64,000 nucleotides of DNA, from the sequence record OP778610. One strand, written 5' to 3'. This stretch comes from Escherichia phage W70. Of this stretch, positions 41,849 through 54,624 are shown piece by piece. Each line of letters starts with the position of its first letter. Position 1 is the stretch's first letter. The position numbers and the translations under genes were made by a program. The notes below the pieces were generated by a model. The model was not told the DNA's origin, searched no databases, and saw only the letters and a list, made by a program, of their open reading frames with translations.

Positions 41849-42148
41849 CTAGTGGCACGCCCCCCAGTTCATCCCTGTGAGGTATTCACCTGTTATGTGG
41901 ACAGGAGATTTCATCATTCGTGCTGCTTGCTCTACACAACGAACAACCATCTCTCCAACTGGACAATACATGATCGTGTAGATTCCATTCTCATCAGGAT
42001 CACACTTAAACTTCCCTTCTTTCACACAATGACCATCCAAGATCATTTTCTTAGCCAAGCAAGCTTCTACAAATTTCTTCGCGTCAGCTTCGTTGTCAAA
42101 GGTCCAGGTCTTCTTGAACTTGTGCGGTACTTCAAGCTGGTATTCATC
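41849..42148 (-). CDS. DNA polymerase (family A), exon 2
   Basis: Begins DEYQLEV (completing motif C HDE with the His that ends exon 1) and ends TGMNWGACH, resembling the T7 gp5 C-terminus as recalled. The Met at 42199 in the ORF track lies inside the intron. Confidence 0.75.
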   Translation of the reverse strand, partial: DEYQLEVPHKFKKTWTFDNEADAKKFVEACLAKKMILDGHCVKEGKFKCDPDENGIYTIMYCPVGEMVVRCVEQAARMMKSPVHITGEYLTGMNWGACH

Positions 42149-42920
42149 CAAAAGTTTAACGAGGTCGTTACTCTCGCCCACATCATTACATGTTGCCATA
42201 CGTTTTCACATATGGATCGGACTATATCACCATCCTTTTCAGGATGCTCCCCATTTCGACGGCACTTGCTCGCCTACGCCTCTCGGCTAGTCTCTGAACG
42301 TTAGGACCATGTGTAGTCACAAGAGATGTGTGTCCAGTTTTTACGGATTTTTATGGACCTTACCACGTTGTAAGGATAACCCATATCCCGAATCTGTGCA
42401 CTTCCATAACCTTGCCCCAGGAAGTTGCAAATCTCTCTAACCTCTTCTTCGGTAACTATACTTCTGGCGTTATCAACCCCTGTTGCTGAACGACATTTAT
42501 CAGCAAAGGTTTTCTTGATATTTCCACCACGAGTTGTCCATTGGAGGTTTGAATAGTGGTTATTCCTTTTGTCAGGCCACTTATGATCAACCTCCGGCAA
42601 ACCTTCAGGGTTTGGTACAAAACACTCTGCCACCAAAACGTGAACAGCCTTTGTAGTCGTCCTTTTGTTGAGATACAGACTTACAATAAGATACCCACGT
42701 CCATTATCAACTGCCGCCATTGGTTTCCCTCGACGACCTATAATGGTCCCGTCTTCATAAACCTTGTAACCGAAATAATCTTTATATTCCACATGATCCT
42801 CTTCGCTGCTGATTAACATAGTCTCATACTAACTCACACTTGAATTAATATCAACCTTAGTCTTCCAGCAATTAAAGGAGTTTTCGATGTGAGTTACCTC
42901 ACAAAGCCACAATGTTACTT
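42149..42920 (-). mobile_element. group I intron with HNH homing endonuclease, in DNA polymerase motif C
   Basis: About 772 nt between ...YYH and DEYQLEV; - strand carries R element GUUCAGAGACUA (42288-42299) and S-like GAUAUAGUCC (42219-42228); 5-prime exon ends in U, intron ends in G. Confidence 0.75.
42301..42819 (-). CDS. HNH homing endonuclease (intron-encoded)
   Basis: 172 aa; AVHVLVAECFVPNPEGLPEVDHKWPDKRNNHYSNLQW is typical of phage HNH endonucleases; sits wholly inside the intron upstream of the R element. Confidence 0.8.
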   Translation of the reverse strand: MLISSEEDHVEYKDYFGYKVYEDGTIIGRRGKPMAAVDNGRGYLIVSLYLNKRTTTKAVHVLVAECFVPNPEGLPEVDHKWPDKRNNHYSNLQWTTRGGNIKKTFADKCRSATGVDNARSIVTEEEVREICNFLGQGYGSAQIRDMGYPYNVVRSIKIRKNWTHISCDYTWS

Positions 42921-45251
42921 ATGGTAATAGATAATACGTCTAACGCCTTCATCATACCAACCTTTCTTAACCAACTGCCAGTGCAGGAGGATACCCACCA
43001 AGTCAAACAGTGCAGCACCACCATTCTGCTGATAAGCATTAAGCAATGAGTGTTTGGAACGAGTGTAGATCTTACGTCCATCAAGACCGTAGATGAATCG
43101 CTTACCGTTAGCTTCCCAAAACTTCTCTAGTGCTTCTTTACGACCTTTCAAGCCGATGTTGCTATCCCAGAATGCGTCGATTACTGCCTGGGCCTTCTCA
43201 AGAGTGATCCCCAGCATTGATGCAATCTTCGCTGCCTGTGCCCCGTACATAATTCCGTATGTCACACCTTTACCTTCACCACGAGAAACCTTCTTCCCTG
43301 CCGCTTTGGTATACGCTTCTGCGTTTCGGGAGTGAGCATCTCCAGATTCCATGATACGAAGATAAGCACCGCCATCGAAATCATAAGCGCCCCATGCTGC
43401 GATCATACCTTCTAGGTTTGAACCGTCGATACCTACCTGATATTTACCCTCAGAGGCTCTGAATAGTTCACGCATCTCTTTACCGAGAAGAACTTTCTCA
43501 TCCGGCTTAGGTACGTTTGCTACGATCGTATGCTTACGACGACCTGTGTTAGTTATTCCACTATAACGGGCCGGAAGTTTACCGTCAACTCGTAGACGTG
43601 GATGGTTAAGCCATCCGGTATCAACCTTCTCTTCTTTCAGCGGGTCAAGAACAGATCGTCGGTTACGTAAAGACAGCCATTTAACAATCTGTTTAGCCAT
43701 TTCACCATCTACTCGCTCAAGGTTAGGGCAAAGACCCTGTTGATCCTTAAGTTGTGGAGATGTAGGTAATGCACGAGCTTTCTTACGGAAAAACTTGAAC
43801 ATCTTTTCTTTATCTGACCACTGCTTAGGTGTGATCGCCAAGCTTTTCAGAATCAGATCACGATACTCCGTCTGATCCAAATCTTCAATGTATTGACGAA
43901 CAATCAGATCAACTTCACTATCGGGACGTTGTTTCTTGAACTGATCTTTAGTTGCATCCTTTGTACGCCAAATTGTTGGGACCCATCCTGCATCACGGAT
44001 CAGGAACTTCTTAACGTCGTCCTGGTTACCAATACGCATCGGAATCATAATGTCCGGCATCTTTTGTTCTTTGATATCCATCAAAGCACGAGCCATATCT
44101 TCCGGCGGCAAAGGAACAAGCCCTTGCTGCTTAACGTTTTGTGCACGGATAAAATCACCCATTTTGGATTCGTCCTCTACACCGTGTTCAACACAATACT
44201 TGATCGCGGCAGCAGTAAGAGATCCGTCAGCCTTAAACGGCTTACTTGGTGCACCTTTAAATTCCAAGGCTTCCCAATTGATATTATAACCTAACTTCTC
44301 TAACCATTTCCAACCTGTACCGGAAAGAGATCCATCACCCTTGAAAGGTTTGGATGGGAATGTCGGTTGTGCTGATTTCGACATCTCTTTCTTCGGCAAC
44401 TTAGGTTCAACCTCTAACTCAATGTCAGTCATCATCTTATCGATACGATCACGAAGCTTGAGTGCTTTTTCTTCATCAAATGAAACACCCTGAATTTCTT
44501 GCTCAATCATCAGGTAGTCAGTCAACATACCTCGACGCAGGGCATTCTTCCAGTTGATCATTTTATACTTCTTCTGATCTTTGTCTGTTTCATCCTTAAA
44601 CATGAAGCGTTTATCATCCGGCATGGATTCACAGGAGATCTCTTTCATCAGAGCATCCCACACCATTTCGTTGATAATTACGTCTTCAATAATACGATCG
44701 CAATACTTCCAAAGTGGAAGGCCACGCCAATCTTCAATCGCCACTTTCTGGTTAGCTACTCGCATACCCCAAGCTTCAAGCCCGTGTGGCCCTACAGGCT
44801 TCATTTTACCTGTGACGGGGTTCTTTACCATCTCAGGACAACCGCGAGGCAGAGGGCGATCTGGATACAATGTACGGGACATTGAAAGTGTATCGAAGAT
44901 GGTTACTTGTTTACCATTGATCGTCCCCATGCAACCAGGGTCTGCAAACATATCGTAAGTTGTTCCTAGCATCTTCTTAAACAACTGGAGGTCATAGCCG
45001 AAGATGTTGTGGATAGCAACTGCTTTAGGCTCGGTAACGAACCATTCGTTTAATTCTTCAAGGGTGCGGATCTTGAAGTTTTTACCTTTAGATTGGATAA
45101 ATTTAACAGCTTGATCGTAACCTTCTCGCTGTGGATCAAGAAAGATGTTCCAGTTATCTTTTTTGTACTCTTTAAACAAGATGCAGTGGATTAGATCAAC
45201 TTCTGTCAACAGACCATTAGCTTCCGCATCTCCAATAAATAAGCCTTTCAT
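42921..45251 (-). CDS. DNA polymerase (family A), exon 1
   Basis: N-terminal exonuclease motif (FIGDAEANGL), motif A-like GIDGSNLEG, motif B RGEGKGVTYGIMYGA; the track ORF terminates at an in-intron stop just after YYH. Confidence 0.85.
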
Positions 45252-51449: not shown

Positions 51450-51962
51450 TCAGAAAGGTGCTTCGTCGTCGAAATCTACATCTTCAACTTCCGGTACATC
51501 AGGAATGTCACCTGCGGATTCAACGATACTCTGTTGTTCCCACGTAGGTTCCTCTGAAGGTTGGTCCATTTCTTCCATAACCTTCTTGATCTCTTCCTCT
51601 TGCTCACGCAGGAAGTTATCATCCGGCTCAGGAATATCTTCCTCTTTAATATCTGAACGAGTGAGATCACTGTTTTGTTCAGACAGAGGTTGAATCTCTG
51701 CTGCTTTAGGCTTAAAGTCTGGAGAACGATGATCATCTTCTGGATGAGCGGCATACCACTCACGAAGAGTTTCATAAGGACTCTCTAAGAAGCCCTCTGG
51801 CGGTTCCAGATAATCACCCGTATCAATGTCATAGAACACAGGGAATTTACCAGCACGACCGTGTTTACGGTCATCCAGAATAACAAAGTAAGAAGTGTTA
51901 CGTTGTTTCATCGGGAGTTCTGGATCTTTGTTACGTTCAATTCCCCACATATAGTAAGTATT
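51450..51962 (-). CDS. primase-helicase (T7 gp4-like), exon 3
   Basis: Begins about NTYYMWGIERN (resembling T7 LSDTIIALERN as recalled); ends with acidic tail ...EDVDFDDEAPF with terminal Phe. The track's N-terminal 64 residues are intron sequence. Confidence 0.7.
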   Translation of the reverse strand, partial: NTYYMWGIERNKDPELPMKQRNTSYFVILDDRKHGRAGKFPVFYDIDTGDYLEPPEGFLESPYETLREWYAAHPEDDHRSPDFKPKAAEIQPLSEQNSDLTRSDIKEEDIPEPDDNFLREQEEEIKKVMEEMDQPSEEPTWEQQSIVESAGDIPDVPEVEDVDFDDEAPF

Positions 51963-52808
51963 CTTTATGTCCAGGCTACTCGCTAGGTAGCCTCGGTGTG
52001 CTAAGACACCCGCCCATACTTTCATACAGGAACAGACTATATCATCACCTTTCGGTGCTCTCCACTTCGGAACCGCTTGGTCCCTACGCCTTTCGGCTAG
52101 TCGTTGAAGATTTTGCATATTCAGGATACATGGTCCAAGTATACAGATTGGCAATTTCTTTCCAATCCCTTTTGCTTCGGATGTTTAGAACAACCGCCCT
52201 TTTAACTTGAATGCCACTACTTTCGGCTATTCTCTTTGCAGTCCATCCCTCTGAAAGTAACTGGCATATCTTATGCACGTCGTTTTCAGAAAGTCCGGTA
52301 CTGTAATGATCTTGCCCTCTAATTGGTAATTTGTTTTCTATCGAGTGTCGAAGATTTTCCTCTTCTGTTACCCACTCAAGGTTATCTTTATGATTGTTCA
52401 ACTTATTACCGTCTTTATGATTTACCTCTGGTAAATTTAAAGGGTTTGGTATATAAGCCTTCGCGACCATCCTGTGAACATACTCAGGCTTCCGCTTACC
52501 ATTTAAGATAACATTAACAACAAAATACCCTGTACCCTTACTTAATGAATTTTTAAGGAATCTTCCTGAAAATTCACTAAAAACTTGTCCATCTTCAGTG
52601 ATAAAGTATGGACTGTTTTCTTCTATTCTTACCATAAGTCCCCTCTTTCATGGGACCAAGATCTAGAATATGCAACTTTCCTGCTGATTACCCAATCCTG
52701 TACCTTTTTAAACATTCACGCTTGCCTTTGCAGACTACGTTGTAGTGTTACAGGCTCTAAGGGCTTCCCAGCAATTCAAAGAGTTTTAGATGCGCTCTAC
52801 TGCTGTTA
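51963..52808 (-). mobile_element. group I intron with HNH homing endonuclease, in helicase motif H4
   Basis: About 846 nt; R-like CUUCAACGACUAGCC (about 52093-52107) and S-like GAUAUAGUCUG (about 52033-52043) on the - strand; 5-prime exon ends CGU, intron ends in G; 3-prime boundary good to roughly +/-20 nt. Confidence 0.7.
52084..52635 (-). CDS. HNH homing endonuclease (intron-encoded)
   Basis: 183 aa; YVHRMVAKAYIPNPLNLPEVNHKDGNKLNNHKDNLEW; similar to the polymerase-intron HNH. Confidence 0.8.
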   Translation of the reverse strand: MVRIEENSPYFITEDGQVFSEFSGRFLKNSLSKGTGYFVVNVILNGKRKPEYVHRMVAKAYIPNPLNLPEVNHKDGNKLNNHKDNLEWVTEEENLRHSIENKLPIRGQDHYSTGLSENDVHKICQLLSEGWTAKRIAESSGIQVKRAVVLNIRSKRDWKEIANLYTWTMYPEYAKSSTTSRKA

Positions 52809-53402
52809 ACGCATCATTGCACGGCTACCAGCAAACTGCGCTGACTGGACTTGACCACCAAATTCATGAGGCTTGCCAGATTCAGGCTTATTAAGGTGAC
52901 AGAAGCAATAATAAGTAAAGCCAAGCTCTTTTGCCAGTTTGGAGATCTCATCCGAGAATCGTTCCAGTTCCTGGTTAGCTTCAGAAGCACTCATACCTTG
53001 CACAAGACGAGTGATCGGGTCAATAAAGATATCTTCACAACCTTCTACGATCACTGCGTGACGGATAGCACCTTTCAGTTCATCCCATACTGCACGACCA
53101 TAGTTGTTATAATAGATAACACTATCACCAACTTCATCAGTAGCTTTGATCAGTTCTTCTTGCTTAAAGTATCCACGTTGACCTTCAAAAACTTCATTGC
53201 CCCAAATGTCACGGTAAGTTCCATCTTCTTGAGGAATCATTACCTTTTCGGCATTAACAAAGTCTTTATGATAACGCTTACCTGCGATCTTCTTACAAGT
53301 GATCTCGTTCTCTTCTTCAAACTTAAACACCGCAGCTTTTGACTTTTCAATACCCGTGATGTGTTCAACCATTTGGTTAAGAAGTTCAGACTTGCCCATT
53401 TT
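52809..53402 (-). CDS. primase-helicase (T7 gp4-like), exon 2
   Basis: Begins KMGKSELL (rest of Walker A), contains CFCHLNKPESGKPHEFGG and ends FAGSRAMMR, resembling T7 gp4 CHLKNPDKGKAHEEG...RGSGALRQ as recalled. Confidence 0.75.
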
Positions 53403-53688
53403 CACCGTTATGTTCGACAGGGTTCGCTACTCCCTGCCCGTTCTCTTACGAACTGCTACATGTCCCCATGCAGACCAGACTATATCTTCAACCTGTTTCC
53501 AGGTGCTATGCACTTCGGACCGCTTGGCCCTACTCTACTCGATTCAAGAGTCTAGCTCTTGTCTTTCGATAGTCGTTGCTCCTTCCTTTTTCAAGGCTTG
53601 GATCAGGATTACGTGTTCTACGCTTCCCCTGAGTTCACATAGTATTTAGTCGAGGCATCTCTGCCAAGGCTGGCTAGACTTAATGTTT
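53403..53688 (-). ncRNA. ORF-less group I intron in the helicase Walker A codons
   Basis: 286 nt between ...FIGAG and KMGKS; - strand contains P/Q-like CAGGGGAAG and AAUCCUGAUCC, R-like CAACGACUAUCG and S-like AAGAUAUAGUCU in the canonical order; 5-prime exon ends in U, intron ends in G. Confidence 0.7.
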
Positions 53689-54624
53689 ACCAGCACCGAT
53701 GAAGTAACCTTCACCTGGACGACGACCCAAGGTAAGCTTGGTCATGGTGGGCCAAGGGAACTTCTTGCCGAGTTTAGGGATCTCATGTGCCTTTTCGCGG
53801 AACTGTGAATAAGTCGAGAAACCATCAGGCACATATTCTTTTGGCTTCATTGCAGCCCAAAACAACTGATCAGAAAGACCTTTGTTATACATATCGCAAG
53901 GGTCCATATCTTCTGGAATATCCACGACCTTCATTTGTGGAATTACAGAGTATACCGCTGCAACTGCATCTTTACCTTTCATGATCCCTTTGGCCTTCTC
54001 TGCTTCTGTCGCACGGTCAGCATCGAAAGCTACGATAATCTCTTCAAACTTACTCAGAAGCTTATAGTTATTCTTCTGTGATAAGTTTTGCACGGCATTG
54101 GATGTACCGTTAGAGATAGATACAACTGTGAAGTTTGGTTTACGAGTGGAACCATCCTTCGGTTTGTACTTCTCTGTCAATACCTGCCACAAGATTGCAG
54201 CATCGTATTCACCTTCAGTGATAAAGATCATACGTTTGGAAGACTTGTTTGCACCTTCCAGACCAAACATATCACAGGCTACAGATTGGAAACCGATAGT
54301 TGTAAAGTGCCCTTTCTGTTGCTTAGGGATCGTAAGATCACGCTTTTTAAAACCTACAACCTTACCTTCCAATGTGTACGGAAAATAATGTGCTTCTGGA
54401 GTCATACCGTCTTTAGCTGACAACTTGGTACGAATACCAAATCGTTTAGCTGTCTTTTCGTCGATACCACGCTCAGGGATACTTTTACACGGGTAAGTCA
54501 ATACATCTTCAACTGTTTCTTCCACACGAGACACACCGCCGCCATAATTACGTGCCACCGAAGCTTTAGGGTTTTTATGTCCAAACTTATAACCGCCAAA
54601 CAAACTTTCGCCAATAGTGCTCAT
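53689..54624 (-). CDS. primase-helicase (T7 gp4-like), exon 1
   Basis: TOPRIM-like motifs (FITEGEYDAAIL, VAFDADRATEAEKA), then helicase N-terminus ending ...RRPGEGYFIGAG; SD AAGGAG plus ATG at 54624; no Cys4 zinc finger before the RNA polymerase domain. Confidence 0.8.

Follow-up and report, generated by a model that had tools for sequence, protein, structure and literature searches.

A probable mobile group I intron with an HNH endonuclease gene in the primase-helicase gene of Escherichia phage W70

A primase-helicase gene in three pieces

In a 64,000-nucleotide (nt) stretch of DNA from Escherichia phage W70 (OP778610; this whole stretch is the window to which all coordinates refer), three colinear open reading frames (ORFs) on the minus strand, at 54624..53680 (ending ...GAGKH and a stop), 53405..52806 (...FAGSRAMMR and a stop) and in the 3' part of 52154..51450 (...DDEAPF and a stop), encode portions of a primase-helicase resembling gp4 of phage T7, and an ORF of 183 amino acids (aa) is located between the second and the third of them. 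The first-pass annotation of this DNA had proposed that positions 51963-52808 hold an HNH-bearing group I intron that splits the gene. Here we describe the arrangement of the locus and present the evidence that this insertion, intron 2, is a mobile self-splicing IA2-like group I intron in the segment of the gp4-like gene that aligns with helicase motif H4, a reading in which we have high confidence.

Removal of both insertions yields a reading frame of 2046 nt and a product of 681 aa. In the Escherichia phage A73, which lacks both introns, the same gene is one uninterrupted 2046-nt coding sequence (CDS), annotated as 'DNA primase/helicase' and likewise encoding 681 aa; 672 of the 681 residues (98.7%) are identical between the two proteins, and there are no differences within 130 residues of the second junction. 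Exon 1 ends ...GAG, inside the Walker A motif. The parts of the gene, with the evidence for each in brackets, are as follows.

53689..54624, minus strand: exon 1, primase/Toprim part, residues 1-312 (ORF list; colinear with A73 CDS A73_82; T7 gp4 alignment)
53406..53688, minus strand: intron 1, ORF-less group I intron of 283 nt in the Walker A motif, between GAG and VKMGKS (Rfam RF00028; absent from A73)
52809..53405, minus strand: exon 2, residues 313-511, ending ...FAGSRAMMR (ORF list; A73 comparison)
51963..52808, minus strand: intron 2, IA2-like group I intron of 846 nt (intron-less A73 allele; covariation-supported fold; partial RF00028 match)
51450..51962, minus strand: exon 3, residues 512-681 and stop, NTYYMWGIERN... 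to the acidic tail ...DDEAPF (ORF list; A73 and T7 gp4 alignment)

The boundaries of intron 2 were obtained by comparing the window with the uninterrupted A73 gene in blastn and inspecting the junctions: the alignment breaks exactly at 52809/52808 and at 51963/51962, which places the 846-nt intron at 52808..51963 on the minus strand. As these boundaries equal the range first proposed, the margin of +/-20 nt that had been attached to it is unnecessary. The second ORF does end ...FAGSRAMMR, as had been noted, and is followed by an in-frame stop (TAA at 52808..52806) formed by the first bases of the intron (UAACAG); the continuation, NTYYMWGIERN, starts at 51962 and runs through the acidic tail to 51450. 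Exon 2 ends ...AUGCGU, the intron ends ...AUAAAG and exon 3 begins AAUACU, so that the predicted spliced junction reads ...GCAAUGAUGCGU joined to AAUACUUACUAU.... Both introns are in phase 0, intron 2 lying between codons 511 and 512. In W70 and in the eight orthologues described below, that is, in nine of nine sequences, the splice-site U of the 5' exon pairs with G14 of the intron, and the terminal intron G (51963 in W70) is kept in all nine. With U as the last base of the 5' exon and G as that of the intron, the junction fits the group I rule, and because A73 provides an intron-less allele, the 5' splice site is fixed independently of any fold.

The spliced protein matches the T7 gp4 structures 5IKN, 6N7I, 1Q57 and 1E0J (E down to 1.9e-20), and its Pfam matches are DnaB_C, above the cut-off, and Toprim_2, below it. 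The spliced ORF is colinear with both the A73 gene and T7 gp4, and the HMMER alignment to the T7 helicase is gapless across the junction ('qfagsrammr' followed by 'ntyymwgiernkdpelp', against T7 'dlrgsgalrq' followed by 'lsdtiialernqqgdmp'), which bears out the proposed joining of exon 2 to exon 3 within a primase-helicase gene as well as the spacing before ERN that had been noted for T7 gp4. Counted along this alignment, junction 2 corresponds to Q494/L495 of T7 gp4, in the segment assigned to its motif H4. The arginine finger, a candidate for the insertion point, was dropped, as the junction lies well upstream of that residue, R522. Motif H4 is the literature name for the T7-aligned segment at the junction (PMC4760082).

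The genus Septuagintavirus has W70 as its founding and type isolate. These pieces are read differently in the paper on that genus, where exon fragments are counted as helicases found in W70 only ('W70 (two)'; PMC11370258); the terms 'intron', 'homing' and 'HNH' do not occur in it. We give practically no credence to separate, additional W70-specific helicases that would serve a different replication strategy, as that description has it: the three ORFs match the single A73 protein colinearly, in order and without overlap (98.7% identity), a complete helicase domain is present in neither exon 2 nor exon 3 by itself, and the intervening sequences are group I introns. Since there is one split primase-helicase gene, the fragment-based gene counts and the statements on 'replication strategy' are annotation artefacts, and the replication-gene orthologue-group counts in the same paper are probably affected by split genes.

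The ribozyme fold of intron 2

At its gathering threshold, Rfam detects only intron 1 (RF00028, 70.4 bits, E=8e-16) and misses intron 2. In a permissive covariance-model scan, J6/7-P7-P7.1-P7.2-P3'-P8-J8/7-P7'-P9 of intron 2 aligned convincingly to RF00028, and the 5' half was forced into the ORF; the search thus recovered the 3' half of the proposed intron, while the intact intron remained below the gathering score, likely because the 552-nt ORF parts the two halves of the core. Given this partial match, we rebuilt the fold from orthologue comparison.

The nine sequences (W70 and eight orthologues) were aligned after GAAA had been put in place of the ORF and of the variable P1 loop (alignment A2), the latter because long P1 extensions in three sequences led to misplaced 5' exons in an alignment from which the ORF had been deleted. 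The columns of P9.2 are one position off for W70 and for one orthologue (L016), so that a few false mismatches are counted. The resulting 79-pair model comprises P1, P3, P4, P5, P5a, P5b, P5c, P6, P6a, P7 (a pseudoknot), P7.1, P7.2, P8, P9, P9.1 and P9.2. We determined that 97.9% of 706 cells are paired under this model, compared with 31–43% when the 3' partners are slid by 1–3 columns; similarly, 27 of the 79 pairs are changed on both sides (1–6 when slid) and the covariation score is 0.281 (0.03–0.07 when slid). None of 500 shuffles reached any of these measures. Compensatory changes are seen in P3, P5, P5a, P5c, P6, P6a, P7.1, P7.2, P8, P9, P9.1 and P9.2; P4 and P7 are uninformative because they are invariant, and thus neither support nor contradict the model. 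Furthermore, RNAalifold, which is independent of the model, returned the same nested helices without the pseudoknotted P7, which is outside its prediction scope. The two halves of the ribozyme are laid out as follows (all on the minus strand).

52666..52795: 5' ribozyme part (helices; compensatory changes; about 80% identity to phage introns)
52795..52790: guide GCGCAU
52783..52777: P3
52773..52768: P4
52687..52682: P4', with P5/P5a/P5b/P5c between P4 and P4', and the 5' strands of P6/P6a reaching 52666
51963..52122: 3' ribozyme part (RF00028 partial match; covariation; RNAalifold)
52122..52113: P6a'
52103..52098: P7
52097..52088: P7.1
52084..52069: P7.2
52064..52058: P3'
52057..52046: P8
52043..52035: J8/7 and P7' (GAUAUAGUC)
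52030..52013: P9
52010..51995: P9.1
51993..51973: P9.2
51963: terminal G

The R-like and S-like elements that had been noted take their places in this fold, the former being UCAACGACUA at 52107..52098 and the latter GAUAUAGUC at 52043..52035. P1 is formed by exon AUGCGU (52814..52809) with the guide GCGCAU, and its pairs are invariant in the nine sequences. Three double changes in one orthologue (L014; CCUAUUG/CGGUAGG) support P3, and P9.2 of W70, read by eye, is AGGCUAC/GUAGCCU. A P2 helix was sought in W70 intron 2 and none was found, P1 and P3 being separated by UAAAA only; P2 is also absent from related introns in Klebsiella phage KP2025 and Aeromonas phage PhAER-3. The presence of P7.1 (GCC-GAAA-GGC) and P7.2 (GGGACC-AAGC-GGUUCC) groups intron 2 with IA2-like phage introns, a label that we apply loosely because the IA2 subgroup is heterogeneous (PMC11878797). 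The intron-less alleles, the splice-site rule, the full set of helices with covariation and the RNAalifold agreement together uphold the assignment of the insertion to the group I introns. A chance pattern is excluded, because the same arrangement recurs, at the same codon, in all ten metagenomic lineages examined, and the helices covary in the eight close ones.

Several observations weigh against the interpretation of intron 2 as a mobile, self-splicing intron. One HNH-containing insertion in the related Pectobacterium phage CB7 was unspliced in reverse-transcription polymerase chain reaction (RT-PCR; PMC7344957), so that structural resemblance is no guarantee of splicing. The intact intron 2 scores 24.7 bits (E=1.3e-3) in the permissive RF00028 scan, for which gathering is 50, three of the seven pairs of W70 P3 (CUCUUUG/UGGAGAG) are G.U, and a P10 helix, where sought, amounts at best to 4 bp in W70 (UACU/AGUA) and is not conserved in the orthologues. 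As the ORF reads through P6a', P7 and P7.1, translating ribosomes could disturb folding. Finally, a segment of about 19 nt that precedes the ORF in most orthologues, and that contains the GTGTAATAT motif in five of them, is missing from W70, which makes expression of the endonuclease in W70 uncertain.

The gene might instead be fractured, with an endonuclease cassette whose ribozyme has decayed and a helicase whose parts are translated separately and come together afterwards, as is reportedly the case for NrdA/mobE of Aeromonas phage Aeh1; we regard this as very unlikely. It would suit the in-frame UAA at the first three intron bases, the sub-threshold Rfam score of the intact sequence and the unspliced HNH insertion of CB7, for which it has been suggested (CB7_245; PMC7344957). 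However, the helices of intron 2 are held by compensatory changes across lineages whose exons are only 75–82% identical, which points to ongoing selection on the RNA fold. Exon 3, moreover, begins without a start codon and Shine-Dalgarno sequence (the earliest AUG encodes the Met of YYMWG and lacks an upstream purine-rich tract), and the split interrupts the conserved motif-H4 segment, where a protein is unlikely to tolerate a break.

We prefer to interpret intron 2 as self-splicing, its splicing being deduced from the sequence features described above. In the pre-mRNA, P1 would form between exon AUGCGU and the guide GCGCAU, placing a U.G pair at the splice site, and the core would fold into P3-P8 with the P3/P7 pseudoknot, P7.1/P7.2 and the P9-P9.1-P9.2 extension. 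An external guanosine in P7 would then attack the 5' splice site and subsequently be replaced by the terminal G at 51963, and joining of the exons (...AUGCGU to AAUACU...) would restore one 681-aa helicase.

The endonuclease gene and its insertion site

52084..52635, minus strand: homing-endonuclease gene, 183 aa, 552 nt, I-HmuI-like HNH, in the P6a loop (Pfam, PHROG and PDB matches)

Consistent with the first-pass annotation, the ORF inside the insertion (52635..52084) encodes an HNH protein: it matches Pfam HNH_3 (E=1.6e-8, 34.5 bits, cut-off 24.8), phrog_59 'HNH endonuclease' (E=3.7e-37) and, over residues 9-99, I-HmuI, the endonuclease of the SPO1 intron (PDB 1U3E, E=1.3e-11), and it is 100% identical to WBF77873.1, annotated as 'HNH homing endonuclease [Escherichia phage W70]'. 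The catalytic residues H73, N85, N94 and H97 are invariant among 13 homologues, and this endonuclease group has Asn where I-HmuI has Asp74. A Shine-Dalgarno sequence, AGAGGGG (52646..52640), lies 4 nt before the AUG. At the other end of the gene, the last 42 nt, stop included (52084-52125), double as P6a', J6/7, P7 and P7.1: the last eight residues, SSTTSRKA, and the stop are encoded by UCUUCAACGACUAGCCGAAAGGCGUAG (J6/7, P7, P7.1), the codons just before them come from P6a', and the stop is the UAG between P7.1 and P7.2. Protein and ribozyme constraints therefore overlap in this region, and the double use is kept in all close orthologues and is still recognisable, as RSTTSREA, in a homologue of 45% identity.

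In W70, a local hairpin (GGUCCC/GGGACU) is predicted to take up the Shine-Dalgarno sequence, and most orthologues have a predicted counterpart of differing sequence; the z-scores of these hairpins are weak (-0.8 to -2.7, with two near zero). A hairpin over the ribosome-binding site would resemble the scheme by which I-TevI is regulated. In two more distant introns at the same site, a near-consensus TTGACA-N17-TATACT lies just upstream of the ORF, within the intron.

Splicing could be intact and the endonuclease nevertheless inactive or silent in W70, the intron then being fixed, immobile and en route to loss of its ORF. We consider this unlikely. The missing 19 or so nt with GTGTAATAT, the predicted pairing of the Shine-Dalgarno sequence and the Asn in place of Asp74 all speak for it; on the other hand, the ORF is intact and of full length (183 aa), as in most orthologues, the Shine-Dalgarno sequence is good, the catalytic His and Asn residues are invariant, and the intron is polymorphic among phages whose exons are 95–98% identical, which fits recent movement.

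A search with the ORF protein returned, besides the 100% match, twelve orthologues (173–185 aa, 63–79% identity) and further distant ones. Genomic context was retrieved for eight of the twelve close orthologues and for two distant ones. All eight close orthologues, on metagenomic phage contigs of up to about 149 kb, lie in an intron that follows ATGATGCGT of a gp4-like gene, ends ...AAG and is followed by AAYAC (AACTG in L017); relative to W70, their exons are 75–82% identical and their intron cores 84–91% identical. The two distant endonuclease genes (45–48% identity), on contigs of 79 kb and 30 kb, are carried by a differently built intron at the same codon. Thus, all ten endonuclease genes examined in context (45–79% identity) are found at ...AMMR followed by (N/S)TYYMWGIERN of gp4-like genes, and as distant endonuclease genes and introns use the same codon, we conclude that this H4 codon is an old and widely used homing site.

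Relatives of the intron core are found more broadly. In a distant blastn search, intron 2 positions 20–135 share about 80% identity with many group I introns of phages, with matches in Twort-like Staphylococcus phages, the ribonucleotide-reductase introns of Pseudomonas KIL phages, Yersinia phage phiR1-37, the DNA polymerase gene of Klebsiella KP2025 and Aeromonas PhAER-3; the KP2025 and PhAER-3 introns score 61.6 and 88.9 bits, respectively, against RF00028. The P7-P7.1 24-mer CAACGACUAGCYGWAARGCGUAGG is present in more than 120 IMG/VR contigs of 5–269 kb, and it overlaps RF00028 matches of 52–100 bits, a range reached by ORF-less introns with this motif, in 17 of the 19 loci scanned. Some of the loci carry several group I introns in tandem, one of them (L033) with four RF00028 matches within 1.6 kb. 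A search of IMG/VR for a natural ORF-less copy of intron 2, using a gapped pattern across P6a, found none.

Mobility, known systems and other introns

The megablast relatives of the locus are the Escherichia phages A7-1, A5-4, UPEC06, A73 and LTH01 (Vequintavirinae), at 95–98% identity and always in three separate pieces. A73 lacks both introns, and A7-1, A5-4 and UPEC06 lack only intron 2, exons 2 and 3 being fused and the upstream interruption kept, so that among the compared phages with exons 95–98% identical, intron 2 is present only in W70. This distribution would be expected from recent gain by homing, or from loss. The differences from intron-less alleles at junction 2 are synonymous and, relative to A73, bunched just within exon 3 (51942-51962) at +2, +8, +11 and +20; apart from these, about 200 nt around the junction match A73 throughout. 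Such clustering is suggestive only; it could have arisen by co-conversion with a diverged donor, or the target site may vary in a way that influences cleavage. In A7-1 and UPEC06, the last base of exon 2 (52809), the U that pairs with G in P1, is different from that of W70 as well.

By analogy with characterised enzymes, the HNH endonuclease expressed from the P6a ORF would most likely nick intron-less alleles close to the insertion site, and recombinational repair during co-infection would copy the intron together with its ORF into the intron-less allele. I-HmuI-type enzymes nick the template strand a few nt into exon 2 (PMC3428280), and similar nicking by the W70 endonuclease is assumed here; its activity, specificity and homing are likewise proposals. 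All three of W70, A73 and A7-1 can be grown on E. coli K-12 MG1655, and their sets of introns differ, so that they provide a natural system for homing, co-conversion and intron-mediated competition.

The closest parallels are the DNA-polymerase introns of SPO1 and SP82 (I-HmuI and I-HmuII; also I-BasI, I-TslI and I-PfoP3I), which likewise combine a group I intron in a replication gene with an HNH endonuclease that has an N-terminal catalytic domain. The polymerase-site introns, like the W70 intron and its orthologues, occupy one conserved codon across widely diverged phages (PMC3428280). However, the host gene of the W70 intron is a gp4-like helicase, interrupted at H4, rather than a DNA polymerase, and the C-terminal DNA-binding half of the W70 endonuclease has no detectable match to I-HmuI. 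The T4 td and nrdB introns, with the I-TevI and I-TevIII ORFs in the P6 loop, share with intron 2 an IA2-like core, P7.1/P7.2 and an ORF that emerges from P6a, but differ from it in that I-TevI is a GIY-YIG rather than an HNH enzyme, whereas intron 2 has no P2 and uses 42 nt both as coding sequence and as ribozyme core.

The same subfamily, Vequintavirinae, harbours elements of the same kind, namely the HNH introns of CB7 (terL, DNA polymerase, nrdA and nrdB) and rV5 (terL). Most of those of CB7 were shown by RT-PCR to be spliced (PMC7344957), and a terminase intron is reported for rV5 (PMC3606486); the intron and primase passages of both papers contain no primase-helicase intron. A literature search of incomplete coverage, which leaves room for an earlier report, likewise found no description of a primase-helicase intron. 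Intron 2 is best read as a typical mobile phage group I intron at an insertion site for which no report was found, and what is known of intron mechanism is unchanged. The value of the analysis is that a published annotation is corrected and a widely used H4 homing site is documented, so that the list of sites to which phage group I introns are known to home is extended to motif H4 in gp4-like genes.

Bacterial DnaB helicases, which belong to superfamily 4 as gp4 does, carry inteins at the P-loop and at motif H4, often both in one gene (PMC4760082). Like these inteins, the W70 introns, in Walker A and the H4-aligned segment, are homing selfish elements; removal takes place at the protein level for inteins and at the RNA level for the W70 introns, and the comparison is made at the level of motifs. 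The parallel supports the view that the best-conserved catalytic motifs are places where homing elements persist. A more far-reaching reading, which we advance tentatively and hold to be somewhat doubtful, is that the intron and its endonuclease are not mere passengers: the W70 endonuclease could damage the intron-less helicase genes of co-infecting A73, A7-1 or A5-4 at an essential motif and so give W70 an advantage in mixed infections. The placement of the W70 introns in Walker A and H4 matches the two favoured DnaB intein sites. On this reading, RNA-level and protein-level selfish elements would have converged independently on the same two helicase motifs. A competitive advantage has been shown for the intron-encoded HNH endonuclease of PhiPA3 against PhiKZ (PMC11620839).

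At the intron 1 site, A7-1, A5-4 and UPEC06 have about 750 nt with an ORF of about 500 nt, in contrast to the ORF-less intron 1 of W70, so that introns 1 and 2 have opposite patterns of ORF presence and absence among the sister phages. The ORF at this site is annotated as an HNH homing endonuclease in A5-4; in A7-1 the annotation is on the opposite strand.

In Klebsiella phage vB_Kp_Z1 (Gajwadongvirus, Autographiviridae; PQ308734.1 7541-11628), the annotation gives the primase/helicase as two CDSs with an HNH gene between them, and the sequence adjoining this HNH gene shares about 86% identity with the 3' core of intron 1. Comparable matches were found in Klebsiella phages Roth32 and RCIP0089, Vibrio phage JSF38 and Erwinia phage VL73. 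The split vB_Kp_Z1 gene means that unlabelled introns in gp4-like genes are present in databases, where such introns seem to be widespread and unannotated.

A third group I intron lies elsewhere in the window, at 42197-42930 on the minus strand (RF00028 39.7 bits, E=1.7e-7, permissive scan). The description of intron 2 as the second HNH-bearing intron holds for the window as a whole, in which the other is at about 42197..42930, but not for the primase-helicase gene, in which intron 1 has no ORF; the intron at 42197-42930 is presumably the one that the first-pass annotation had counted as the first. It contains an ORF of 172 aa (42301..42819) and lies between ORFs of 778 aa (42915..45251) and 116 aa (41849..42199).

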